DNA of 54,546 bases from Eubacteriales bacterium (GTDB lineage Bacteria > Bacillota > Clostridia > Oscillospirales > CAG-272). A program made the translations under genes and the position numbers. The stretch covers positions 1 to 54,546 of the forward strand of contig JAZNII010000131.1 of the NCBI GenBank assembly GCA_045577415.1, given 5' to 3'. Shown piece by piece: positions 36,725-54,291 of this stretch (its first letter is position 1; each line of letters opens with the position of its first letter). The notes under the pieces were generated by a model. The model did no database searches and was not told the origin of the DNA. It worked only from the letters and a program-made list of their open reading frames with translations.

Positions 36725-37089
36725 AAGTGGGATCCTTAATATGAATAAAATAAAAAGATGTGATAATAATATTTAACGATTTTCACAATTCGCTCAAAGC
36801 CGAAGAAAAATAAACGGTTTTATGGTTCTGAAAATACATTAATTGTTTATAAATATTCAAGAATTTTTAGAAAACAACAAAAAACAGTGTATTTTGTGAA
36901 ATGTTCGCGAAAAATAATAGCGTTTTTTATATTAAGTTTTTGGAAAAGTATTGGTATTATACGGTCAATACTCAAAATGATCGATTTTGCGGTAAAAAAC
37001 AAGGCGATTTGGCTTAAATATACCCAAATTCATTCGTTGTATAAATGTGCTATAATAGAGAGGACACAACAAAATTGAGAGGGAAGACC

Positions 37090-37296
37090 ATGTTGACCAA
37101 AAGCTCAAGCGCAAAAATCAAGATCTCTAAAAATAAGATGTATTCGGTAGAAGTGTCCGATAAAAACGGAAAAACGACCGTTTACAAGGAGCTATCGAGT
37201 GACGAAAAAGCTATACGCCGGTTCGTAGATGCAATAAACCGAGGAGACGTGTCTCTGATACATATTGACGAGCTGATCGAGGATATTCTCGGTTGA
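37090..37296 (+). CDS. small hypothetical protein (DUF6514-like)
   Basis: ELSSDEKAIRRFVDAINRGDVSLIHIDELIED pattern; GAGGG RBS. Confidence 0.55.
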   Translation: MLTKSSSAKIKISKNKMYSVEVSDKNGKTTVYKELSSDEKAIRRFVDAINRGDVSLIHIDELIEDILG

Positions 37297-37305
37297 GAAT
37301 GAAGA

Positions 37306-37926
37306 TCACTTGATGTCGGATTTGAAAGCCACTGCTTTTCCGATAATGTGTATCTTCTCAAGGTCCTCGCCTACGAAAACCAGGGGCTCATAGCTGTTGT
37401 TTTCGGGAATAAGCATAAGTTTTTCGCTTTCGGGGTAGTAATATACTCTTTTAAGCGTTGCCTCGTCGTTGATCACCACTGCCGCGATCTCGCCATTTGA
37501 CACAACGTCGGTCTTTTTGATAAATACCGTATCGCCGTTACAAATTCTGGCATCCTTCATGCTGTCTCCTTTCGCGATAAGACAAAAGTCTGCGTCGGTG
37601 TCAATATCGGTTATGACAAGACCGTCGTCTTCTTCATTAACAAATACCGGAGCGCCGCAGGCGATCTCGCCCACAACGGGGAGAGCCTTGAACTTGGTGT
37701 CTCCGGTTCTTTCCGTTTGAATAGAATCGGAGGTGCCGAGCAGATAACCCTCATTGATCTCAAGCGCCTGAGCGATCAGACAGATTGCATCAGCCTTAGG
37801 GATGTAAACGCCGCTGAGGTACTGACTAAGGCGCGGCTTGGATATGCCGGTGCGCCTTGAGAGCTCAGCAGCTCTCATATTCTTTTCGGCCATGACTTCC
37901 GCCAGGCGAGATCTGAAATCTGTCAT
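37306..37926 (-). CDS. phage CI/LexA-like repressor (XRE HTH + S24 autopeptidase)
   Basis: AELSRRTGISKPRLSQYLSG HTH; VGEIACGAP cleavage-site region; GDSM Ser and TLKR Lys; ATG 37926 after GAGGT. Confidence 0.9.
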   Translation of the reverse strand: MTDFRSRLAEVMAEKNMRAAELSRRTGISKPRLSQYLSGVYIPKADAICLIAQALEINEGYLLGTSDSIQTERTGDTKFKALPVVGEIACGAPVFVNEEDDGLVITDIDTDADFCLIAKGDSMKDARICNGDTVFIKKTDVVSNGEIAAVVINDEATLKRVYYYPESEKLMLIPENNSYEPLVFVGEDLEKIHIIGKAVAFKSDIK

Positions 37927-38003
37927 AAATACCTCACACGTAATGTTCAAGATCATTCTTGAAATTCAAAATACTCAAAATCTAATATTTTTTGATATAC
38001 CAT

Positions 38004-38032
38004 ATTATAACAGAAAGTTAAGCAAATGTCAA
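38004..38032 (-). promoter_or_regulatory. sigma-A promoter of the repressor
   Basis: Minus strand TTGACA-17bp-TATAAT. Confidence 0.8.
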
Positions 38033-38334
38033 CACTTTTTTTGAAAAAAGTTAAATAAATTTAATGAAAATTTTTATCCAAAACAATCAAATGCGACACA
38101 AAAACAACTTGTAGTTTAAAAGTCAACAATATTGTTACAAGAATGACAAAGAAAATTGTTTTCTGACAAAATAATATTAAGCTTGCTGAACTGAATTTTA
38201 TGAAAACGTGAGAGTTCAAAATAATTTTTGTAAAATTGAAAATTTACTTTGATGGGGTTTATACAGAAAAATGCTTTGTGACAAAAGGGAATGAGCCTAT
38301 TTTTTATACGCAGGAAAATTTTTCCGATCGGGGG

Positions 38335-38363
38335 TTGACAAAATAGAACGGATGTGCTATAAT
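38335..38363 (+). promoter_or_regulatory. consensus sigma-A promoter of head module with overlapping SOS-box-like site
   Basis: TTGACA-17bp-TATAAT with TGn; GAAC-GGAT-GTGC at 38346-38357 (1 mismatch to GAAC-RNRY-GTTC). Confidence 0.8.
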
Positions 38364-38366
38364 AGC

Positions 38367-38684
38367 GACAGTTAAGGTTGCGACGCAGTTGTAAGCGGCA
38401 GAAAACACGATATAAATTTTCCGTTGCTTATCAGGCGCCTGCGGCTCTTGCCCGAAACACGTGACACGTGAAAGTATTTAACCAAAGAGCTATATTTCAT
38501 TTGCGAGTTTTGGCACCGTCTCATTTTCGGCGGCCTCGCAGGTGAGATTGCAAGTGTTAAGCGCTTAAATGTATACATTTTACTTGCTATGCGTCTTTGT
38601 CAGTATGCTTATCAAGCTGTTCGATCGTGAAGCCGTTCCGTCCACCCCAAGCGGATTCGGATGACCTTCGTCGGTTTGACTGTC
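38367..38684 (+). ncRNA. putative large structured leader/ncRNA
   Basis: Closing stem GACAGTTAA/TTGACTGTC, nested GACGCA/TGCGTC, several internal stems including a 13-bp one with G-U pairs; no convincing + strand ORF. Confidence 0.6.
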
Positions 38685-38836
38685 TGTGATTTCTCTAAAA
38701 ATAATTCGTTTGCGGTCTTTTCTAGTTTTAACCGTTAAGGTTTTATTTTTTTTAGGCAAAGAGTTAAGCAAGCTTAACAATAATATATATGCTCACCATG
38801 TTTGCCTGATATTTGGAGAGCGGAAAGGCTAAAACT

Positions 38837-39055
38837 TTGGCAATACAAGGAACCTGCCCTTATTTGCAGTCTATGAAGGACAAGAAAGCGATAAGTTGCG
38901 AATGCGCTCATTTTAAATTTCCCGACAAAATATCGCGTCGTGAAATAATTTACGCTTATTGCGCTCATCCGACATCCTACAACGACTGCGCTTTTAAAAG
39001 GGTATTAGACAGATATTACTATGAAAGGAAGTTCTCCTGTGAAGATAATCAATAA
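38837..39055 (+). CDS. small Cys-rich phage-type protein
   Basis: TTG start after GGAAAGG; CPY..SCEC..YC..Y.DC. Confidence 0.6.
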   Translation: MAIQGTCPYLQSMKDKKAISCECAHFKFPDKISRREIIYAYCAHPTSYNDCAFKRVLDRYYYERKFSCEDNQ

Positions 39056-39347
39056 AATTTTTACGTATCTCGTAAAAATGAAAAACAAGCAGCTTAACGT
39101 CGAAAGACTTAAAATCTGCGCTCTTGAACAGACCAATTCTATTCTCTCTGCTTACATATCGATATTTATTGATGAACAAGGTGAGGTTCGCATTCCCAAG
39201 ATGCAGATAAAAGAGGCTATCGGTCGGTACTCCGCAAATGTAGTCCTCGATGGCTCTGATTACGTTATTCGCGTGGAAAAGCTTTACTCGCCGCAATCTT
39301 TTATGAACGGGGACGAGGTCAACTCCGATGCCAAAAACGAAATATGA
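39039..39347 (+). CDS. hypothetical protein
   Basis: GTG start after GAAAGGA; overlaps both neighbours, operon-like. Confidence 0.55.
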   Translation: MKIINKIFTYLVKMKNKQLNVERLKICALEQTNSILSAYISIFIDEQGEVRIPKMQIKEAIGRYSANVVLDGSDYVIRVEKLYSPQSFMNGDEVNSDAKNEI

Positions 39348-39834
39348 GCTTTGGCGCGAGCGCTACGGTCTCGAATATATTCGCCGACTTGCCGAGGAGG
39401 GCGAGGGAGACGAGGAGCTTGCCGCGCGTTGCGGTCTTGAGCTTTCGGTGTTTCGCATGTGGAAGAAGAAGCACCCTGAATTTGCCGAAGCAATAAGCTT
39501 TGGCAGAAGTGAGTCGGATTATTCCGTCATAAAGGCGCTCCACAAAAAGGCGACGGGCTTCAACGTTGGACTTAAAAAAACTTATAAGCTGAAAAGAGTA
39601 GAGTTTGATCCCGACACAGGCAAAAAGGTTCGCGAATACGAGGAGCTTGCCACGGGCATTGACGAGACCTACGTTCCTGCCGATCTCAACGCCGAAAAAT
39701 TCTGGCTGAAGAATCGCCAGAGCGAGCATTGGAGCGAACAGAGCGAAAAAGTCTCCTCGGAGGAAGCCGAGGGAGAGACGGGTATATTGGAGATCCCCGT
39801 GGCAGACATGCTGGACGATCCCCGAGAAGACTGA
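39328..39834 (+). CDS. putative terminase small subunit (HTH)
   Basis: WKKKHPEFAEAI, ALxKKATG, PAD..A..FWLKNR; immediately before TerL. Confidence 0.7.
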   Translation: MPKTKYELWRERYGLEYIRRLAEEGEGDEELAARCGLELSVFRMWKKKHPEFAEAISFGRSESDYSVIKALHKKATGFNVGLKKTYKLKRVEFDPDTGKKVREYEELATGIDETYVPADLNAEKFWLKNRQSEHWSEQSEKVSSEEAEGETGILEIPVADMLDDPRED

Positions 39835-39843
39835 GGTTGAGAC

Positions 39844-41331
39844 ATGACGGCAGCAGTTCACAGCTTGAAAAAAGGTGGTTCAGAGCGAGGAAAAAGGGTG
39901 ATATGGCGTCCGCAACCGAGACAGGCGGATTTTATGCGCCGTCTCGAGGACGAGGCTCTTTACGGAGGCGCGGCGGGCGGCGGAAAAAGTGACTGCGCCC
40001 TTGCCGAGGCACTCCGTCAGGTAAATATTCCTCACTACCGAGGACTTATTCTGCGAAAGACCTATCCTCAGCTCTCGGAGCTTATAGATCGCTCATTTTC
40101 AATATATTTGCAGGCTTTTCCGGGCGCGGTGTTCAATGAGAGCAAACATTTCTGGCGCTTCCCGTCGGGGGCAAAGATATACTTTGGTTCTCTTGCTCAT
40201 ACCGACGACCGCTATAACTATCAAGGTAAGCGCTACGATTTTATCGATTTTGACGAGCTTACGCAGTTTACCTTCGATGAATACAGCTATCTCTTTTCAA
40301 GAAACCGTCCAAGCGGCGCGGGAACGAGATGCTATATGCGAGCGCAGGCAAATCCGGGCGGGATCGGACACGGCTGGGTAAAGGAGAGATTTGTTACTCC
40401 CGCTCCGCCTATGACGACTATTTGGGAGACGGTGAAGATCCGTTTCCCCGACGGACGGGAGGAGGAGAGGCGAAAATCACGTATATTCGTGCCAAGCACC
40501 GTGTTTGACAATGAGATACTGCTTCGCAACGATCCCGAATATCTGACCCGACTGGCATCACTTCCCGACGCTGAGCGTGCCGCGTTACTTTACGGTGATT
40601 GGGACGGATTTTCGGGGCAGGTATTTACGGAATGGCGAAACGATCCCGACCGCTATCTCGACAGAACCGGTACGCACGTGATCTCGCCCTTTAAAATTCC
40701 CAAGGATTGGAGTATCTATCGCAGCTTCGACTGGGGATATTCACGTCCGTTTTCGGTAGGATGGTATGCAGAGGACAGAGACGGAACTCTTTACCGTATC
40801 CGCGAGCTTTACGGATGCACCAAGACGCCAAACGAAGGTGTCAGATGGGAGGCGTCAAGGGTAGCTTCGGAAATCAAAAGAATAGAAAACGAGGACGAAA
40901 ACCTCAAAGGCAGGCTTATCCACGGTGTTGCCGACCCCGCGATATATCAGAAGAACGGCGGTGAGAGTATCGGCGGCATTATGGAGAAGCAATGCGTTTA
41001 TTGGGATAAGGCAGATAATTCCCGTATAGCGGGGAAGCAACAGATACATAACCGTCTCGCCTTTGACGAGTTTGGAAAGCCGAGATTTTACGTCTTTTCG
41101 GTCTGCCGTCAATTTATAAGGACCTTTCCGTGCCTCGTTTACAGCTCCACTGATGTCGAGGATGTGGATACTTCGATGGAGGATCATATCTACGACGAGC
41201 TTCGCTATATGTGTATGGAGCGTCCTGTCCCAGCCATTCGCCAAAGGGCGACGGGGTTGCTTCTTGCGTCTGATCCTCTGGACTTGTCCGAGGAAAGTTC
41301 AAGATACAATCTCCGCGTCCGATACAGATAA
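39844..41331 (+). CDS. phage terminase large subunit
   Basis: PQPRQ, Walker A GGAAGGGKS, Walker B FIDFDE, ANPGG, nuclease SFDWG..ADP..EDH; intact frame. Confidence 0.92.
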   Translation: MTAAVHSLKKGGSERGKRVIWRPQPRQADFMRRLEDEALYGGAAGGGKSDCALAEALRQVNIPHYRGLILRKTYPQLSELIDRSFSIYLQAFPGAVFNESKHFWRFPSGAKIYFGSLAHTDDRYNYQGKRYDFIDFDELTQFTFDEYSYLFSRNRPSGAGTRCYMRAQANPGGIGHGWVKERFVTPAPPMTTIWETVKIRFPDGREEERRKSRIFVPSTVFDNEILLRNDPEYLTRLASLPDAERAALLYGDWDGFSGQVFTEWRNDPDRYLDRTGTHVISPFKIPKDWSIYRSFDWGYSRPFSVGWYAEDRDGTLYRIRELYGCTKTPNEGVRWEASRVASEIKRIENEDENLKGRLIHGVADPAIYQKNGGESIGGIMEKQCVYWDKADNSRIAGKQQIHNRLAFDEFGKPRFYVFSVCRQFIRTFPCLVYSSTDVEDVDTSMEDHIYDELRYMCMERPVPAIRQRATGLLLASDPLDLSEESSRYNLRVRYR

Positions 41332-41359
41332 CATATATCAGAAAGGACCATTATATATA

Positions 41360-42913
41360 ATGAAGAAAAAAAGTATTGCATCCCCCGATCTTGCCTATGC
41401 CGTCAAGACCTTACTGCTCTATAAAAGAGATAAGAGTAAGATAGAGGCAAGATTGCGCGATGAGGAGGAGGTCTGGCGCGGAGTATATTCGGGCGGCGAG
41501 TCCTGCTCCTGGATATTCAACAGTGTCATAAACAAGCACGCGGACGTGATAGAAAATATCCCCAGCTGCGTGTGTCTGCCTCGCGAAAAACGCGACGAAA
41601 GATATGCCGAGATGCTTTCAAAGATCATTCCCGTTATAACGCAAAGATGCAATTTTGAACAGACCTATTCAGACAATTCATGGGAAAAGCTCAAGCACGG
41701 AACCGCCGTTTACGGAGTTTTTTGGAACAATTCGCTTGAGGACGGCATGGGTGACGTTGATATAAGACCGATCTCTCTCTCTGACGTTTTCTGGGAGGTG
41801 GGTGTCAGCGACGTCCAATGCTCGCAAAACCTTTTTATCGTAAAGCTTTGCGACAGGGGCGAGCTTGAAGCCTCCTTTGAGAATTTTGACGGAGACACCT
41901 GTCTTGAGAGCGACAGCGCTTTGCGTTCCTCTCTTGAGATCGGCGGCGACGGAAAATATCTTTTGGTGGATTGGTATTACAAAAAGTACCGTTCTGACGG
42001 CGATCAGTCGTTGCATCTTTGCAAGTTTGTGGGAGATCAAATCCTCTATTGCTCCGAGAACGATCCCGCGTGCCGGGACGGATGGTATCATCACGGGCTT
42101 TATCCCGTAGTTTTTGACAGACTCTATCCTACGGGCGGCGCCTGCGGCTTTGGTCTTATCTCAATTTCGGGAGACCTTCAGAGATATATCAACCGTATCG
42201 ATAACGATATGCTGACCTACACCGACTGGGCGAGCAAGGTGCGTTTCTGGGCAAAGCGAAGCCTTGGAGTCAATGAAAAGGAATTTCTTGATCTTAACCG
42301 CAGTATCGTTGAGGTCGAGGGTGACATTGACGAGGAAAAGCTTCGCCAGATAGAGATAAATCCCATTGACGACTCTGTGATCGACGTCAAGCGCATGAAG
42401 ATAGAGGAGCTTAAGGAGGTAACGGGATCCCGTGACGTGTCCCAGGGAGGATATTCGGGAGGTGTTACCGCCGCTAGCGCTATCAGTATTCTTCGCGAGG
42501 CGGGAGCGAAGTCATCCCGTGACGGAATTGAGGAGACTTTCCGCGCCTACGTCAAGATCATCGCTCTCGTAATTGAGCTTATACGTCAGTTTTATAATGA
42601 AAAGCGCATATTCCGCATCGTAGGAGAAGACGGAAAAGCGGAATATCTCGATTTTTGCGGCAGAGAGCTGACGGATGAGGATGGCAGACGACCCCATTTT
42701 GATATTGAGGTCAACGCTACCAAGAAGTCTCCCAGCGAGGCGGCGCAGAAGAACCAATTCGCCAAGGAGCTTTACGAGGCGGGGGCATTTAAGCGCGAAA
42801 ACGCGGCAGAGACCCTTATGATGCTTGAGCTTATGGACTTTGAGAGAGTGGGTATGCTTAAAGCCACCATTCGGAGGGTGTACGGAGACGAAGCAACGGG
42901 TGACGAGACGTGA
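41360..42913 (+). CDS. phage portal protein
   Basis: 517 aa after TerL; GVTAASAI..L.EAG.K, ELIRQFY, FRIVG motifs; ATG after GAAAGGA. Confidence 0.8.
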   Translation: MKKKSIASPDLAYAVKTLLLYKRDKSKIEARLRDEEEVWRGVYSGGESCSWIFNSVINKHADVIENIPSCVCLPREKRDERYAEMLSKIIPVITQRCNFEQTYSDNSWEKLKHGTAVYGVFWNNSLEDGMGDVDIRPISLSDVFWEVGVSDVQCSQNLFIVKLCDRGELEASFENFDGDTCLESDSALRSSLEIGGDGKYLLVDWYYKKYRSDGDQSLHLCKFVGDQILYCSENDPACRDGWYHHGLYPVVFDRLYPTGGACGFGLISISGDLQRYINRIDNDMLTYTDWASKVRFWAKRSLGVNEKEFLDLNRSIVEVEGDIDEEKLRQIEINPIDDSVIDVKRMKIEELKEVTGSRDVSQGGYSGGVTAASAISILREAGAKSSRDGIEETFRAYVKIIALVIELIRQFYNEKRIFRIVGEDGKAEYLDFCGRELTDEDGRRPHFDIEVNATKKSPSEAAQKNQFAKELYEAGAFKRENAAETLMMLELMDFERVGMLKATIRRVYGDEATGDET

Positions 42914-43263
42914 TAGACGTAGATTTTTCAAGGACGAAAAATGGCTTTCGTCTGCATATTGAGGGTCACGCCGATTACGGAGAGAGTGGCAACGACATTG
43001 TGTGCGCCTCGGTCTCGGGCATATTTTACGCCCTTTGCGGATATCTGCTGAATTTCAAGAAAGACACGCTTCGTATAAACGCTATAGGAAGTGGTCTTGC
43101 CGACATTGAGTGCGGACATGAGTGTGAGGACTATCTTCAGCTTGCCTGTCTGGGATTTTGGCAGATCTCCATGGCATATCCCGAAAATGTTCGGGTCAAT
43201 AACCGTGCTTGGCGTTGGAGGATGAATCCTGATCGTATAAGCGCTACAAAACAACACGTTTAA
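42910..43263 (+). CDS. element-encoded Prp-family cysteine protease (prohead protease role)
   Basis: IEGHADYGESGNDIVCASVS and YPENV motifs of the Prp family. Confidence 0.85.
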   Translation: MIDVDFSRTKNGFRLHIEGHADYGESGNDIVCASVSGIFYALCGYLLNFKKDTLRINAIGSGLADIECGHECEDYLQLACLGFWQISMAYPENVRVNNRAWRWRMNPDRISATKQHV

Positions 43264-43288
43264 CGTGGGAAAGGATTACGTTTTGCCT

Positions 43289-43864
43289 ATGGAAGAAAAC
43301 AGAAACCAAATTATGATTGACGGAGACTCGGCTTCGGCTGAAACGATCTCCCCCGACAAAAAGAGCCTTGAAACAGAGGATGTGATCGGGGAGACGCCCG
43401 AGGAGGACGTTATTGACGTTGAAAATGATATTGAAGTTGCGATCAGGGAGGATAAAAGACTCACCGATCGCGAGGAATACGATTCCTTAATAAAGGGACG
43501 GTTTAAGGATCTTTATGCCGAGGATACTCAACGGCTTATAAATCGCCGTTTCAGGAAGTACAAGGTCATGGAGGAGAGATTCAAGCTTCTTGAAGAAAGC
43601 CTTGCGGAAAAAGAGACGCAGATCGGTGAGCATCAGCAAATGATCGCGGATTTTGAAGCCAAGCTGCGCTCCGAGGTTGAAAAAGCGGTCAAGGAGACCG
43701 AGGAGAGAGTGATTGGCGAGATAAAAGCCAAAAAGCTCCGTCCTTCGGAAAACGGCATGGCTCCTCGCAAATCAAGCTCCCCCTTTGACGTATCAAGGCT
43801 TACAAAAAACGAACGCGCTACCCTTGCAAAGCGCGCCGCAAGCGGCGAAAGGATAAAATTTTAA
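43289..43864 (+). CDS. putative capsid scaffolding protein
   Basis: Acidic N-terminus, coiled coil, RPSENG and C-terminal RAASGERIKF; directly before MCP. Confidence 0.7.
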   Translation: MEENRNQIMIDGDSASAETISPDKKSLETEDVIGETPEEDVIDVENDIEVAIREDKRLTDREEYDSLIKGRFKDLYAEDTQRLINRRFRKYKVMEERFKLLEESLAEKETQIGEHQQMIADFEAKLRSEVEKAVKETEERVIGEIKAKKLRPSENGMAPRKSSSPFDVSRLTKNERATLAKRAASGERIKF

Positions 43865-43887
43865 TTATCGAAAGGAAAAACAACAAT

Positions 43888-45168
43888 ATGACTATTTTGA
43901 AAGCAAACATTCAGCTTTTCGGAGCAGGTGAAAAGGTGCTCGGCACCGAGGGTGAGATCAATGTAAAGAACGGTCAGGTCAGCGAATACGCGGAAGGCGA
44001 GGGTCTTTCTCCCGAGATGCGTACCTATTATTCCGATTATCTTATAGATAATGCTGAGCCTGCGCTTGTTCACGACCGCTTCGCGCAGAAGCACACTATT
44101 CCCGCAGGCGGCGGAAAGTCGGTTCAGTTCCGCAAGTACGATCCGCTGCCCAAGCTGACCGATCCCATCGCGGAGGGAATTACTCCCACGGGTCAGACCA
44201 TCAATATGGGTATCGTCAATGCGACGGTTGCTCAGTACGGCGGCTACGTTGAGCTTACCGACCTGCTTCTTATGACCGCCATCGACAACAATCTTTGCAT
44301 GGCTACCAAGCTTCTCGGCAGTCAGGCGGGCAGAACTCTTGACACCATCTCCCGTGAGGTTCTTGTTGGCGGAACCAACGTGCAGTACGGCGAGGGTCAG
44401 GTTAGCGCAAGATGCCAGCTTACGGGCGGTAAGGGTAACGGCGAGAACCACTATCTCACCGTTGACGCTATCCGCAAGGCGGTCAGATTCCTCAAAAATC
44501 AGAACGCAGAGAAGATCGACGGCGCTTATGTTGCGATCATTCATCCCGACTGCGCTTACGACCTTATGAGCGATCCCAACTGGAAGTATCCTCATCAGTA
44601 TGCCGAGCCTTCCGCTATTTTCGAGGGCGAGCTTGGCAAGATCGAGGGGGTTCGTTTCATCGAAAGCACCGAAGCGAAGGTGTTCCATGCTGAGGACCTT
44701 GCATCTGACGCGAGAGTGCTTAAGGTGAGCGAAAAGGCGACCGCATCTGCTACCGTCAAGTTCACGGGCGGCACTGTTGTTGACGGCGAGCTTGTTGGCA
44801 GAGAGGTGCTTATCGGAGGCAAGAAGTACTTTGTTTCCGCTAACACCGCGACCACTCTCACTCTTGCGACCGACAGCACCAAGGCTACTTCTGCGTCGGT
44901 TACCTGCGATGCTAACACCGTGATCTATCCCGGTGAGGCAGGTGCTGAGGGCAGAGACGTATACGCGACTCTTATCTTTGGCGAGAACGCTTACGGTACT
45001 ACCGCTTTGGCTGACGGAGGTCTTGAGCATATCGTCAAGCAGCTTGGTTCCGCAGGCTCCTCCGACCCTCTCAATCAGAGAGCTACCGTTGGATGGAAGG
45101 CGACCAAGGTTACCGTTCGTCTCGTCGAAGCCTTTATGATCCGTATCGAGACTGCCGCGTCGGTTTGA
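43888..45168 (+). CDS. major capsid protein, N4-gp56 family-like
   Basis: LSPEMRTYY, AEPxLVH, FRKY, EGITPxGQ, QYG, GELGKIEGVRF, DPLNQRATVGWK; N-terminal IQLF/G motif. Confidence 0.88.
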   Translation: MTILKANIQLFGAGEKVLGTEGEINVKNGQVSEYAEGEGLSPEMRTYYSDYLIDNAEPALVHDRFAQKHTIPAGGGKSVQFRKYDPLPKLTDPIAEGITPTGQTINMGIVNATVAQYGGYVELTDLLLMTAIDNNLCMATKLLGSQAGRTLDTISREVLVGGTNVQYGEGQVSARCQLTGGKGNGENHYLTVDAIRKAVRFLKNQNAEKIDGAYVAIIHPDCAYDLMSDPNWKYPHQYAEPSAIFEGELGKIEGVRFIESTEAKVFHAEDLASDARVLKVSEKATASATVKFTGGTVVDGELVGREVLIGGKKYFVSANTATTLTLATDSTKATSASVTCDANTVIYPGEAGAEGRDVYATLIFGENAYGTTALADGGLEHIVKQLGSAGSSDPLNQRATVGWKATKVTVRLVEAFMIRIETAASV

Positions 45169-45182
45169 GATTAGGGGGAGAA

Positions 45183-45426
45183 TGCAGGGAAAGCCTTTTG
45201 GAAAAAGGCTCCCCCTGCACCCCCGCGAAAACTTCAATAAGGATAGTTGAAGCTACAGACGGCTTGGATTTTGAAATGATGAAATATATATTTGAAGCCG
45301 TTTAGTGTAATTTCAAGTCAACAAAACAAATATTATCTCCAAAAAGCCTTTTCGGGGAAGTTTTGGGGATTCCTAAGGGACTTTTTCTAAAAGTCCCTTA
45401 GGTGGGGTGTGGGGCGAAGCCCTGCA
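45183..45426. repeat. pair of oppositely oriented REP-like palindromes around a central hairpin
   Basis: TGCAGGG..GCCTTTT/AAAAGGC..CCCTGCA; CCTAAGGGACTTTT/AAAAGTCCCTTAGG + GGGGTGTGGGGCGAAGCCCTGC; central ACGGCTT/AAGCCGT. Confidence 0.6.
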
Positions 45427-45440
45427 AGAAAGGAACTAAT

Positions 45441-45809
45441 ATGTCAAAATTGAATGATACGATAGCCGCGATAAGAGCGGAATACGAGCAGATGCTCGCC
45501 GAGAAAGAGGCAGAGAACGCCGTTCTTCGCGGAGAAAAGAGAATTGCCGCCGAGAAAGCCAAGGCGGCGGCGAGAGAGTACGAGGACTATCTCAACGAGT
45601 ACATCTCGGTCAAGCTTTTCAAGGACAACGACAGATACCGTGACGACGTTTACGTTGCCGTCAACGGACAGAACTGTATTATCAAGAGAGGCGAATGGGT
45701 AAAGATCAAGCGAAAGTTTGCTCTTGTTCTCGATGCGTCCGAGATACAGGATATGAAGACCGCAGAGTTTATCGAGAGAGAGCAGAGAAAATTTGCCGAG
45801 GCTAATTAA
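45441..45809 (+). CDS. conserved phage protein following capsid gene
   Basis: Coiled coil then VKLFKDNDRYRDDVYVAVNG..IKRGEWV; GAAAGGA RBS. Confidence 0.65.
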   Translation: MSKLNDTIAAIRAEYEQMLAEKEAENAVLRGEKRIAAEKAKAAAREYEDYLNEYISVKLFKDNDRYRDDVYVAVNGQNCIIKRGEWVKIKRKFALVLDASEIQDMKTAEFIEREQRKFAEAN

Positions 45810-45812
45810 TTC

Positions 45813-45842
45813 AAATGGCTACCGCCAAAGCGGTAGCCATTT
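45813..45842 (+). terminator. intrinsic terminator ending the head module
   Basis: AAATGGCTACCGC-caaa-GCGGTAGCCATTT. Confidence 0.7.
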
Positions 45843-45865
45843 CAAAAATCTAAATCTTACCAAGG

Positions 45866-45894
45866 TTGACAACATATTAATATTGTGATAATAT
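45866..45894 (+). promoter_or_regulatory. sigma-A promoter of DUF2974 gene
   Basis: TTGACA-17bp-TAATAT. Confidence 0.5.
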
Positions 45895-45954
45895 TATAGT
45901 AAGGATAATGATGAAATACGTTTTGTCTGCGGTAAGGTGAAAGGAGGGAGAAAA

Positions 45955-47013
45955 ATGCCCGATATATTTGATTATTTAAAGTGGAGGGGAGATCTTTCAT
46001 TTTATCAGTCAAGGTTTAACGCGGTAGACGGAGTGATACTTTCCACTCTTACGTTTATAGATTTTAATGCCTTGTGCGGCGACGAGGACATTGATATAAA
46101 GACCGCCGCAGACGGTTACTGTCCCGGCGAGGACTACGATAGCGTGGAGCTTGGACTTATAATCCCTGCCGTGAAGATCAACAAGCTGTTTTGCGAGTGC
46201 GGTATGACCAAAAGGTTTGGAGGTATAGTGGTATCGGATTTTGTCCAGCATACCGACGAGCGCGCTTGCGTGCAGTTTGCGGCTATGACCTTTCATATAG
46301 GCAAAGACCGCCTTGCGATAGCGTTCAGAGGCACTGACGACTCCTTGGTGGGATGGCGTGAGGACTGCTGCTTATCTTATCTTGATGAGATCCCCGCGCA
46401 AAAAATGGCAGTTGAATATCTTGAGCGGATCGCGGAAAAATATCCCGAAAAGCGAATGATCGTGCTTGGACATTCCAAGGGCGGAAATCTGACCTTGTAT
46501 TCTGCCTTGAAATGCTCCGTAAGAACCTCTCGGAGAATAGTTCGCGCCTATTGCTACGACGGTCCCGGGCTTTCGCCTCAAATGGTGACAGGAAAGAGAT
46601 ACGAGTTGATGAAGAACCGTTTGGAGGTCATATTGCCTCAATCCTCATATGTTGGAGTAATGTTTGAGCGCGGAGAGTGGTATTCGGTTATAAAAAGCAC
46701 GGGAAGGGGACTTCTTCAGCACGACCCGTTCACGTGGGAGATCGACGGTCCTAACTTTGTGTTGCTTTCGGATCTTTCTGCCCTGGGCAAGATACACGAG
46801 GCGCGTTTCAAAGCAAGGCTGGACGAGTTGACATCGGAGGACAGACGGGAAGTGGTGGAGATGGTCTTTGATTCTATCTCCGCATCGGGGATCAAGACCC
46901 TTTCGGAGCTTCGCGAGAAGGGACTTGGCAAGATAGTTTCGGCTATTAAGACCTACGGTTCTTACGATAAGAAAAAAAGAGAGCTTCTTCGAACTCTTCT
47001 ATTTAAAAAATAA
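45955..47013 (+). CDS. DUF2974/Mbeg1-like alpha/beta hydrolase
   Basis: DYLKWRGDLSF, AFRGTDDSLVGWRED, GHSKGG, DGPG, QHD. Confidence 0.88.
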   Translation: MPDIFDYLKWRGDLSFYQSRFNAVDGVILSTLTFIDFNALCGDEDIDIKTAADGYCPGEDYDSVELGLIIPAVKINKLFCECGMTKRFGGIVVSDFVQHTDERACVQFAAMTFHIGKDRLAIAFRGTDDSLVGWREDCCLSYLDEIPAQKMAVEYLERIAEKYPEKRMIVLGHSKGGNLTLYSALKCSVRTSRRIVRAYCYDGPGLSPQMVTGKRYELMKNRLEVILPQSSYVGVMFERGEWYSVIKSTGRGLLQHDPFTWEIDGPNFVLLSDLSALGKIHEARFKARLDELTSEDRREVVEMVFDSISASGIKTLSELREKGLGKIVSAIKTYGSYDKKKRELLRTLLFKK

Positions 47014-47017
47014 ACGC

Positions 47018-47048
47018 AAAAAAACACCGAATTTTCGGTGTTTTTTTT
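47018..47048. terminator. bidirectional terminator
   Basis: AAAAAACACCGA-attt-TCGGTGTTTTTTTT between convergent genes. Confidence 0.75.
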
Positions 47049-47080
47049 GCTTGATAAGTATTACAAAGTTTGTTTGTAAA

Positions 47081-47317
47081 TTATCTGATATCAACGTTGA
47101 CCTTTTTATTACAGCCGTTAGCGGCAGCCTTGATCACCATACGGATAGCCTTAGCTATGCGGCCGTTTTTGCCGATAACCATGCCCATATCGTCGGGAGC
47201 AACGCTCAAGGTAAGATTGATACTCGTTTCGGTCTCGTTTTCAATGACCACGACCTCGTCGGGATTGTCAACGATGGCAACTGCGATATTACGCAGGGTC
47301 TCTTTCAAATCTACCAT
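47081..47317 (-). CDS. khpA: KH-domain RNA-binding protein
   Basis: IVDNPDEV, DMGxVIGKNGRIAKAIR; after rpsP. Confidence 0.9.
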   Translation of the reverse strand: MVDLKETLRNIAVAIVDNPDEVVVIENETETSINLTLSVAPDDMGMVIGKNGRIAKAIRMVIKAAANGCNKKVNVDIR

Positions 47318-47362
47318 GGGGTATCTCCTTAAAAATCGGTATTGTTTCGTATGATCCTACGA

Positions 47363-47605
47363 TCAGTCAACGATACCGGACTTCTTAAGCAGAGCCTTTA
47401 CGGTTTCAGTGGGCTGAGCGCCGTTTGCGAGCCACTTCTTTGCAAGATCAGCGTCGATCTTAACCTCTGCGGGCTCGGTCTGGGGGTTGTAGTAGCCGAT
47501 CTCCTCGATGAAACGACCGTCTCTGGGGTAACGGCTGTCAGCAACAACTACGCGGTAGAAGGGAGCCTTCTTTGCACCCATTCTTCTAAGTCTCATTTTT
47601 ACCAT
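47363..47605 (-). CDS. rpsP: 30S ribosomal protein S16
   Basis: [30 protein letters not shown]. Confidence 0.97.
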
Positions 47606-47688
47606 TTTTTTGTCCTCCAAAAATTTTGATATAATAATTTTTTATTTTCCATTAAAAACCTTGCGGTTTAAATAGCAACAATTGTGTC

Positions 47689-53733: not shown

Positions 53734-54291
53734 TTAATGTTGATAATACATAAGCCAGTAGGATATCACGCTTTTCAGCTTTGGTTTCCTTGGCGTAATT
53801 AACAAAGTTGTGCCAAACAAGGAGTTATTCAAATACTTTGTAGATACACCGTTAAAACCCTTCATAAAGCGTTTAAGCTGGCTGTGGTAGCTGTTTATGT
53901 GCTGAATATTGTAAATCCCTTTCTTGGATTTACCCGTCTTTAACTGCACTAATTCAATGCCGTTTGTATTAGAGAACCTTACATAAGAGTTCATTTTATC
54001 GGTTACAAGTGTTGCAGATGGATCTATTCTACCATCATAAAGACGGTGCAGATCTTTGGTTGATACTCTGCCCGTGTTAGAAACTTTGGCAATAGACATG
54101 CCATTTCTATTTACGGCACAAGGTACACAAACCTTTTAACTTGATAAACCACGCACGTGGGTTGAATGACCTCTTTGGTGAGGCTCACGGGGCATAGTGA
54201 ACTTTTTGCTCAAGAGAATAGTTTTAAGACGCTCTTGGTCGGTTGGACTTAATTTATCGATTTTATCTAAAATATCTTTAATAGCAGACAT
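53734..54291 (-). pseudogene. IS1595-family DDE transposase, internally deleted and nonsense-disrupted
   Basis: MSAIKDILDKI... fused to KFTMPREPHQRG..RGLSS*KVCVPCAVNRNG; LVTD, HINSYHSQLKRFM..FNGVSTKYLNN. Confidence 0.8.

Follow-up and report, generated by a model that had tools for sequence, protein, structure and literature searches.

A replaceable, partly structured middle within a modular leader of a clostridial capsid operon: a possible case of transcription attenuation

The 54,546-nt contig JAZNII010000131.1 of a Eubacteriales bacterium (CAG-272 lineage, GenBank assembly GCA_045577415.1), which was analysed at its full length and is called the window here, contains a stretch at positions 38367-38684 of the forward strand that a first-pass annotation had described as a discrete, multi-branched RNA of about 315 nt leading a capsid operon. 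We find this flagged stretch to be the middle of an untranslated leader of ~470 nt (about 38367-38836): since the first gene of the operon starts with a TTG codon at 38837, the leader extends to 38836 instead of ending at 38684, and its most conserved elements are found at 38697-38828, beyond the annotated end. The leader is modular, with four conserved modules placed around a variable middle. We give an even chance to the reading that it is a cis-regulatory attenuation leader, of which the flagged stretch would be the lineage-specific middle, mainly a tolerant and mostly replaceable scaffold or spacer and not a conserved RNA machine. The flagged object itself is of an ordinary kind, a structured 5' leader that stands before a phage-type late operon and can largely be replaced; the island to which it belongs is more unusual. 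The promoter and the parts of the leader are as follows:

38335-38363, + strand: promoter P1, TTGACA-17-TGcTATAAT, TG-extended, a 12/12 match of the sigma-70 type
38368-38381, + strand: 5' tag ACAGTTAAGGTTGC at the predicted transcript start, conserved in 26/27 leaders
38382-38447, + strand: 5' domain, invariant GCAG (38385-38388)/CUGC (38439-38442) around a type-specific hairpin (38392-38430)
38448-38547, + strand: weakly conserved part with GCTCTT/AAGAGC and a 13-bp hairpin (38495-38547)
38548-38592, + strand: hairpin GCAAGT/ACTTGC, its apex (38557-38581) made up of TTAAGCGCTTAA and AAATGTATACATTT
38593-38635, + strand: unconstrained spacer, 44% invariant vs neutral 56%
38636-38656, + strand: hairpin TCCG/CGGA with the C-rich loop UCCACCCCAAG (loop 38641-38651)
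38657-38696, + strand: unconstrained tail, 48% invariant, including the annotated 3' closing arm TTGACTGTC (38676-38684)
38697-38753, + strand: terminator-like element with arms 38697-38716/38731-38750 and core GCGGU/ACCGU (inverted repeat I1)
38763-38778, + strand: perfect palindrome GTTAAGCAAGCTTAAC (GTTAAG-N4-CTTAAC), at a fixed 9-10 nt past the U tract
38791-38821, + strand: covarying hairpin with loop motif YUGCCKGA, its last base abutting the Shine-Dalgarno sequence
38822-38839, + strand: Shine-Dalgarno sequence GGAAAGG (38822-38828) and TTG start codon (38837-38839)

Investigating the relatives of this bacterium, we observed that a 531-nt query comprising promoter and leader matches 33 of the 36 other genus genomes (E <= 0.001), mostly by its promoter part, and 2 of 24 genomes of other families in the order, there at the promoter only; the first gene of the operon was present in 27 of 30 fetched loci. 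Full-length matches are confined to two genomes, G001 (87%) and G014 (77%), and the remaining ones match only window positions 38330-38390 and about 38700-38830. When the middle alone (38385-38700) serves as the query, 2 of the 38 other genus genomes match (G001 84%, G014 73% over 273 nt), so that, with its own genome counted, the middle is present in 3 of 39 genus genomes; three more matches, of 19-32 nt, lie on contigs without the island. Relatives carry unrelated sequence of about 0 to 2,000 nt in its place. The distance between the -35 element and the first start codon ranges from 140 to 637 nt across 27 loci, and eight leaders with a promoter-to-start distance of 140-175 nt are too short to hold the middle. 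In G017 (L154:2330-4358), about 2.2 kb of non-coding DNA lie between promoter and start, including an 18-nt unit (AAAGCAGGATGCGGACTG) repeated 36 times in tandem and two degenerate versions of a box that joins a T tract and the P1 spacer. Judged from these loci, the interval from P1 to the first gene is a hot spot of sequence turnover.

Collections beyond the genus gave a similar picture. In exact-pattern scans, the invariant 25-mer at 38557-38581 has no match in viral contigs, a 28-nt 5' pattern has none in metagenome contigs, and the promoter-plus-tag pattern finds 20 metagenome loci, five of them island-type, none of which has this middle. Two further DNA data sets of relatives, one resembling G001 and one fragmentary, yielded no usable new homologue. 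A 15-nt C-loop motif matches viral contigs 83 times; we judge these matches to be chance, because promoter and palindrome are both absent from all 80 loci examined.

Within the small clade that shares the middle, a three-way alignment (window, G001 and G014) was set against a neutral benchmark, the four-fold degenerate sites of five flanking genes, which are 72% identical to G001 (205/284), 66% to G014 (177/270) and 56% three-way invariant (148/264). The flagged stretch has 85% and 72% ungapped identity to the two homologues. Three blocks lie above the benchmark (38367-38447, 78%; 38548-38592, 89%; 38636-38656, 81% three-way invariant), with binomial P values of 4e-5, 2e-6 and 0.016 for blocks that were picked post hoc. 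The other four of the seven blocks, together more than half of the flagged stretch, are neutral-like with 40-57% invariant positions, the values across 38448-38547 being 40% and 57% (neutral 56%). The 25-nt apex at 38557-38581 is identical in all three genomes and holds two palindromes, each of which is unique in the genome.

As to structure, all nine stems quoted by the first-pass annotation exist at or next to the positions that it had given for them (the 3' arm of the outer stem being 38676-38684); laid over the three-way alignment, that structure has 89.7% of its cells paired, mostly from invariant columns. Helices 3, 5, 6 and 7 keep 92-100% of their cells paired, and helices 1, 2, 4 and 8 are lost. 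Pairing reaches 95% in the 5' hairpin, 92% in the 13-bp stem, which has one compensatory pair, and 100% in each of the stems GCAAGT/ACTTGC and TCCG/CGGA, the latter with a C-G to U-A change. The outer stem (85%) and GACGCA/TGCGTC (67%) show uncompensated breaks in both homologues, GCTCTT/AAGAGC is lost to gaps, and GAC/GTC (67%) fails in one homologue. RNAalifold recovered the local hairpins with a covariation term of +0.36 and put other long-range pairings (alignment columns 3-7/84-88 and 94-101/320-326) in place of the two closing stems. The consensus fold has a z-score of -5.41 on the + strand (0/200 column shuffles as good; structure conservation index 0.79) and of -3.38 on the - strand (0/150 shuffles as good). 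The hairpin with the loop UCCACCCCAAG is common to five species, in which its stems change on both sides. Several of the local hairpins are genuine and have been kept in one small clade; no such conservation holds for the multi-branch architecture. Of the proposed conserved structure, the local hairpins therefore stand and the two closing stems do not, and a discrete, conserved multi-branched RNA of about 315 nt has to be given up for an element found in 3 of 39 genomes, with an unconserved closure and with more than half of its length evolving neutrally.

The stretch is non-coding, as had been annotated: no + strand open reading frame (ORF) of at least 40 amino acids occurs across 38044-38686, and two - strand ORFs (38372-38578 and 38580-38780) have no Pfam or PHROG match and are disrupted by indels of 1, 2 and 4 nt in the two homologues. 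The absence of a known RNA family was likewise confirmed, Rfam 15, whose families include riboswitches, T-box, tmRNA, RNase P, 6S, SRP, group I/II introns and phage RNAs, giving no match at gathering score in the whole window and a permissive filter over 38000-39100 only five, at chance level (E 3.2-9.2; 15-20 bits vs gathering scores of 32-100). Folded as a single sequence, the + strand reaches -98.5 kcal/mol (z -2.13, 2/100 dinucleotide shuffles as good; z -1.6 with mononucleotide shuffles) and the - strand -86.3 kcal/mol (z -1.23, 11/100 as good). The + strand thus folds better than the - strand, as the annotation would have it, although only by some two standard deviations below its shuffles, and single-sequence folding of the flagged stretch is only modestly above chance. 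On the outcomes by which the annotation itself proposed to be judged, the findings are divided: covariation is not significant and the folding energy modest, and on the other side no known family matches and the local hairpins are conserved. Since the stretch is single-copy, with one match in the 2.03-Mb assembly, a miniature transposable element with terminal inverted repeats (GACAGT...ACTGTC) was rejected.

The part of the leader that is shared more widely begins ~15 nt beyond the annotated end, with the terminator-like element, common to about eight leader types. Its hairpin, with the 14-nt loop UCUUUUCWAGYUUYA (38717-38730), is followed by a U8 tract within 38741-38753. Among 14 sequences, the loop motif UUUUCWAG and the tract UUAUUUUUUU vary little or not at all, and the U tract UUUUAUUUUUUUU (38741-38753) is nearly invariant among leader types. 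With the loop held open and the flank pairing compared with that of shuffled flanks (300 shuffles), the flanks pair above the shuffled level in 7 of the 14 sequences (z -3.0 to -3.7, 0-4/300 as good); these seven (G011, G029, G007, G035, G015, G034 and mgL126) represent about four or five leader types. A pairing of the terminator loop with the spacer between Shine-Dalgarno sequence and start codon (I5 in the window) was dropped, being inconsistent across types.

The hairpin adjoining the Shine-Dalgarno sequence is present in all 17 sequences folded (-5 to -27 kcal/mol), with a different sequence in each type. In 16 of these sequences its last base directly precedes the Shine-Dalgarno sequence, and in G036 it stops one base earlier. 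Its basal pairs are canonical in 4.81 of 5 positions within a sequence, in comparison to 2.89 of 5 in 218 cross pairings, and each position shows three to five pair types, U-G included. These pairs, like those of the terminator-like hairpin, were counted by script from the hairpin ends, which is a less standard procedure; MAFFT with RNAalifold, applied to the 3' module and the 5' domain, recovered invariant pairs only, because the arms of unequal length were misaligned.

The remaining modules are the 5' tag with its enclosure and the palindrome. The tag is complementary at 10 of 11 positions to 38768-38778, i.e. to the loop and 3' arm of the palindrome (inverted repeat I6), and is followed by the invariant GCAG...CUGC enclosure (4 bp) around a type-specific hairpin; in type B, an A-U, G-U, G-C series is seen when the inner 5' hairpin is compared among species. 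Short leaders fold as one long helix joining the ends with tag and palindrome, and in L029, where the downstream copy is degenerate, its pairing with the 5' palindrome depends on G-U pairs alone (read by eye). The perfect form GTTAAG-N4-CTTAAC occurs at three sites in 2.03 Mb and, with at most one mismatch, at 10 sites, in comparison to 8 for a control pattern. Whether the GTTAAG elements act as RNA or as DNA is ambiguous, and the palindrome could pair with the 5' tag as RNA or serve as an operator in DNA. A promoter of the sigma-A or a sporulation-sigma type at the T tract and palindrome was also considered, and no convincing spacing was seen by eye.

Several observations on the leader point to RNA: the terminator-like hairpin, the hairpin at the Shine-Dalgarno sequence, the C runs and the + strand z-scores. 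Runs of at least four C number 16, vs three runs of at least four G, on the + strand of 22 leaders, and are mostly in predicted loops; the + strand z-score is below that of the - strand in 16 of 20 leader types, with a mean of about -1.2 over the 20 types. Three short motifs are absent from Rfam, namely the loop UCUUUUCAAGYUUCA, the 5'-3' GUUAAG helix and the loop YUGCCKGA of the hairpin at the ribosome-binding site.

Upstream, the annotated start of the stretch at a predicted transcription start site is borne out by P1, whose position predicts a start near 38368-38370. The P1 spacer AAATAGAACnnnTGTGC is conserved genus-wide, with the almost invariant sequence AAATAGAACAAATGTGC, and holds an imperfect, operator-like dyad, TAGAAC-N4-GTGCTA. 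A LexA (SOS) box at P1 was rejected, the genome's own lexA being without such a dyad: GAAC-N4-GT[TG]C is absent from the loci of lexA (198 bits) and of two LexA-like paralogues. Because these loci lack it, the P1 dyad is more likely the putative operator of the island's own repressor. The paralogues mentioned, two further LexA-like S24 proteins encoded in the genome (C27:9496-10044 and C76:11703-12281), score 99 and 96 bits with the lexA model. The repressor gene itself faces P1, and the spacer of its promoter contains TTTGCTTAAC, a copy of the GTTAAGCAAA motif, which was found in 20+ loci. The two features on that side are:

38004-38032, - strand: divergent promoter of the repressor gene, 12/12 match in a promoter scan
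37306-37956, - strand: repressor gene, 216 amino acids, HTH_3 and peptidase S24 domains (Pfam, PHROG)

These findings would fit the following course of events. P1, of the sigma-A type, would be controlled by the facing, autocleavable CI/LexA-type repressor; a transcript from P1 would pass the tolerant, partly structured spacer and reach the conserved-loop hairpin with its U tract, where many transcripts would end and release a short leader RNA of ~385 nt. Read-through would need an antitermination factor or the 5' RNA conformation of the leader itself. Only the read-through RNA would contain 38768-38778, able to pair with the 5' tag, and it would also gain the hairpin adjoining the ribosome-binding site; the 5'-3' helix and this hairpin may stabilise the read-through RNA or set its translation. 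Among the interpretations offered by the first-pass annotation, an antitermination leader fits best, with a hairpin and U8 tract ~15 nt past the annotated end and between a strong promoter and the first gene, whereas a novel non-coding RNA family, a packaging-associated RNA and a cargo RNA found no support.

The closest known parallel in layout is the late leader of lambdoid phages, in which the promoter PR', the terminator tR' and a short '6S' leader transcript are subject to Q antitermination. As there, a strong promoter is followed by an untranslated leader ending in a terminator-like hairpin and U tract, the leader stands directly upstream of an operon with terS, terL, portal and capsid genes, and a poorly conserved leader body goes along with a conserved initially transcribed sequence. 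Unlike there, the promoter here holds a dyad of the repressor type and stands opposite the gene of a CI/LexA-type repressor, the loop of the hairpin is uncommonly large and conserved in sequence, the bacterium is Gram-positive and forms spores, and termination is a prediction; no Q-like gene or Q-binding element was identified, though no Q-directed search was made, and we do not assign the leader to any such family. By eye alone, a -10-like TAAGGT was made out at about +6 to +11. The leader RNAs of processive antitermination (lambda nut, HK022 put, Bacillus EAR and the LoaP leaders) offer a second comparison. They share with the present leader a structured, conserved RNA just past the start, upstream of a terminator and a long operon, but there is no match in sequence or to an Rfam model, and what is invariant in the 5' domain here is only the 4-bp enclosure of a hairpin that differs by type.

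If the attenuation reading is true, the leader would be the control point of a capsid and packaging cluster that has been kept at one site throughout the diversification of the genus. What lets the polymerase past the conserved-loop terminator would then tell when and why cells build tail-less DNA-packaging capsids, and such knowledge would help to decide between a helper-dependent satellite and a domesticated gene-transfer device. The gain for RNA biology would be smaller, one more structured phage-type leader.

It should also be noted that a number of findings weigh against attenuation by RNA. In the alignment of the three homologues only two pairs changed on both sides, a number equalled in 54 of 500 shuffles, so that the covariation which the first-pass annotation had proposed as a test is not significant; the seven blocks were drawn after the alignment had been viewed. 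The terminator-like hairpin is weak in its own genome (-4.8 kcal/mol, 16/300 shuffles as good) and in the two closest relatives (40/300 and 60/300), G032 has no such hairpin when the loop is held open, and short-leader types keep the U tract after hairpins that are only marginal; a simple terminator scan did not flag the site, the 14-nt loop being over the limit of the scan. The GTTAAG/CTTAAC arms are invariant across the genus and carry no covariation, because they never vary. Beyond the invariant 6 bp, tag and palindrome pair better within a leader (3.44 of 5 positions) than across leaders (2.49 of 5), which speaks for an RNA helix, but the 16 distinct combinations of this test fall into only some three sequence classes that are independent. 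The tag has become GTCGAG in the L020/L154 lineage, and the palindrome shows no compensating change. Copies of the GTTAAG type occur in untranscribed DNA, within the repressor promoter's spacer and closely upstream of the -35 element of P1, in 20+ loci. The palindrome motif is not island-specific, because perfect sites also adjoin housekeeping genes: perfect or near-perfect copies with similar centres lie in intergenic DNA at G000:C73:23696, C148:5284 and C85:1394 (L144-L146), next to genes for a class V aminotransferase/DUF4003, a metalloenzyme and spoIIR/trkA, one of them directly past a -10 box, and may be the site of a host regulator or a 5' stem-loop motif. Finally, no match named as an antiterminator family appeared in the general scans of the window (38 ORFs with Pfam, 22 with PHROGs), which included no Q-directed search.

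Some of these points would also be expected if the conserved pieces acted as DNA, an unlikely reading to which we nevertheless give real weight. The leader would then be a stack of protein-binding sites with the variable middle as spacer DNA: the GAAC dyad at P1 would bind the repressor and the GTTAAG(CAAA) sites a second, Cro-like regulator, for which the Cys-rich product of the first gene, orf108 or TerS would be candidates, and the whole would form a switch with looping between operators or a pac recognition region upstream of terS. GTTAAG motifs in DNA that P1 leaves untranscribed (the 20+ loci) speak for it, as do the palindrome arms, invariant without compensatory change as sequence-specific recognition by a protein predicts, and the T tract at its fixed 9-10 nt from the palindrome. 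Both apical motifs at 38557-38581 are perfect DNA palindromes, the - strand consensus fold also beats its shuffles (z -3.4), as expected of symmetric DNA sites, and TerS and orf108 are the most divergent proteins, changing together with the leader type. Yet the stems of the terminator-like element and of the hairpin next to the Shine-Dalgarno sequence vary and still pair, with U-G pairs possible on the + strand only, the C runs are strand-asymmetric (16 vs 3), the palindrome loop tends to co-vary with the nucleotides after the 5' tag, and the perfect GTTAAG-N4-CTTAAC sites beside housekeeping genes are no property of the island.

Distinctly unlikely, in our view, is that the flagged stretch is functionless, a tolerated piece of junk whose hairpins are incidental to AT-rich, locally palindromic intergenic DNA. 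The extreme plasticity of the site, where relatives have unrelated sequence and G017 has tandem repeats as well as duplicated fragments of the promoter, would agree with this, as would four of seven blocks at or below neutral conservation and single-sequence z-scores of only -2.1 (dinucleotide) and -1.6 (mononucleotide), with a 20-type mean of about -1.2. The three blocks well above the neutral rate, post hoc as they are, the consensus-fold z-score of -5.4 and the C-loop hairpin shared by five species argue against it.

A further reading, which we consider improbable, would make the whole leader a modular riboregulator of a kind not yet described, serving a domesticated capsid system without tails in gut Clostridia that form spores, with a new, factor-dependent kind of antitermination or processing that gates capsid production. 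Here the tag would close just past the terminator, the C-rich loops would sit in the exchangeable middle and the hairpin would touch the ribosome-binding site, and the terminated ~385-nt RNA might also act in trans via its C-rich loop.

Most doubtful is that the transcript from P1 up to the U tract functions as a non-coding RNA in its own right, acting in trans via the C-rich loop on G-rich ribosome-binding sites, linked to packaging, or packaged itself: a strong promoter with a terminator-like element would give a defined ~385-nt RNA without an Rfam family, with local hairpins conserved in three species, a UCCACCCCAAG-loop hairpin kept in five with altered stems, and strand-specific loop runs of at least four C in 13 of the 17 leader types whose distance from transcription start to U tract is at least 140 nt, but the body is found in only 3 of 39 genus genomes and is single-copy, leader length varies more than 4-fold in 27 leaders (~15-fold with G017), eight leaders of 140-175 nt have no room for it, over half of the flagged stretch is neutral-like, the pairs closing the multi-branch structure are broken in the homologues, and the complement of the C-loop is not enriched in the window (11 matches vs 8.5 expected). 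Systems with TerS/TerL and a P22-type portal are not known to need a packaging RNA, and the operon encodes TerS, TerL and a portal of this type. The phi29 packaging RNA is comparable as a structured non-coding RNA linked with a phage packaging module, but differs in that nothing here matches Rfam, TerS/TerL and a P22-like portal take the place of a phi29-type motor, and the body is unconserved. RsaE/RoxS of Firmicutes resemble the leader in the unpaired CCCC within hairpin loops of the transcribed strand; unlike them, the leader shows no homology, had no target in a search of the window, and carries the motif in an mRNA leader instead of a free-standing small RNA gene.

Returning to the promoter, a cassette of the P1 type (GGGGTTGACAAAATAGAACAAATGTGCTAWAAT) also precedes DUF6291 genes at unrelated loci in 4 of 4 other genus genomes examined, which suggests a small putative regulon under the repressor of the island, the DUF6291 gene included. 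Its positions are:

L162:2489-2516: cassette upstream of a DUF6291 gene
L163:2484-2516: cassette upstream of a DUF6291 gene
L164:3128-3161, - strand: cassette upstream of a DUF6291 gene
L165:2372-2405: cassette upstream of a DUF6291 gene

Between the divergent promoters of the window lie ~300 nt of AT-rich extra DNA (38040-38330); in compact relatives the promoters are ~45 nt apart. Among the 20 metagenome contigs with TTGACAA-N12/13-GTGCTATAAT-N5-CAGTTAAG (L120-L139), 15 present unrelated, phage-like contexts, in which a GGGG...CCCC hairpin often comes after the tag, in a set preselected by the search pattern; phages of these bacteria may commonly use promoter and tag together as the design of an early promoter.

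The leader belongs to an island of ~10 kb (37306-47629), which occupies one chromosomal site, from sigG/radC to ffh, in most genus genomes. Apart from the repressor gene, it consists of:

38837-39055, + strand: first operon gene with TTG start, coding for a 72-amino-acid Cys/His-rich protein that matches no known family
39021-47629, + strand: rest of the operon, orf108 to two small ORFs (Pfam and PHROG scans)

The order of the operon is Cys-rich gene, orf108, TerS, TerL, P22-like portal, Prp protease, scaffold-like protein, major capsid protein, a 135-amino-acid protein (p135), Mbeg1-like protein and two small ORFs; ffh and ylxM follow 3' of it on the - strand, and the left flank of the island holds the dcw cluster, sigG, an ftsZ-like gene, radC and a DUF6514 gene. 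Each of the 11 long loci that were fetched has an identical gene order from the repressor to p135, with radC/DUF6514 or sigG at the left and, where the DNA extends that far, ffh/ylxM at the right. Because gene order and chromosomal site are constant across loci, the island looks as if it had come down by vertical descent rather than by mobility. It may be a capsid or gene-transfer-like system that has been domesticated, or else a satellite that has become immobile. No tail, integrase, replication, connector or HNH family was recognised within 37045-47629 by the Pfam and PHROG scans.

The packaging operon (operon I) of staphylococcal pathogenicity islands is controlled by a repressor or by the SOS response, and the operon described here likewise lies behind a promoter that, judged by its sequence, would be repressor-controlled. 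Phage-inducible chromosomal islands that form capsids, as far as the available part of their description goes, combine an integrase, alpA and a primase-replicase with genes for capsid, portal, protease, head-tail connector and HNH-terS-terL (bioRxiv 10.1101/2022.09.08.507074). Measured against that part of the description, the present island is similar in being a small chromosomal island with its own terminase, portal, protease and capsid and without tails; integrase, alpA, primase-replicase, HNH and connector genes were not found in 37045-47629. In further contrast to these elements, it is fixed genus-wide at one site, from sigG/radC to ffh. No leader RNA is described in the available part of the same account (bioRxiv 10.1101/2022.09.08.507074).

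TerS and orf108 are the most divergent proteins of the island and vary along with the leader type. The Cys-rich product of the first gene has invariant Cys and His residues (CxC...CxH...C) and 17 related clusters among 5.8 billion proteins, none of its matches being in the phage collection; its predicted structure is of low confidence (mean pLDDT 51), and it may be a zinc-binding regulator. The best phage-collection matches of the capsid protein are unannotated faecal 'Bacteriophage sp.' scaffolds (42-51% identity). Two of these scaffolds, which were fetched, have related terL, portal and capsid genes and none of the following: repressor, Cys-rich gene, P1 promoter, palindrome. Near the end of the window, a 121-amino-acid ORF (53734-54099) weakly matches an ISXO2-like (IS1595) transposase domain.

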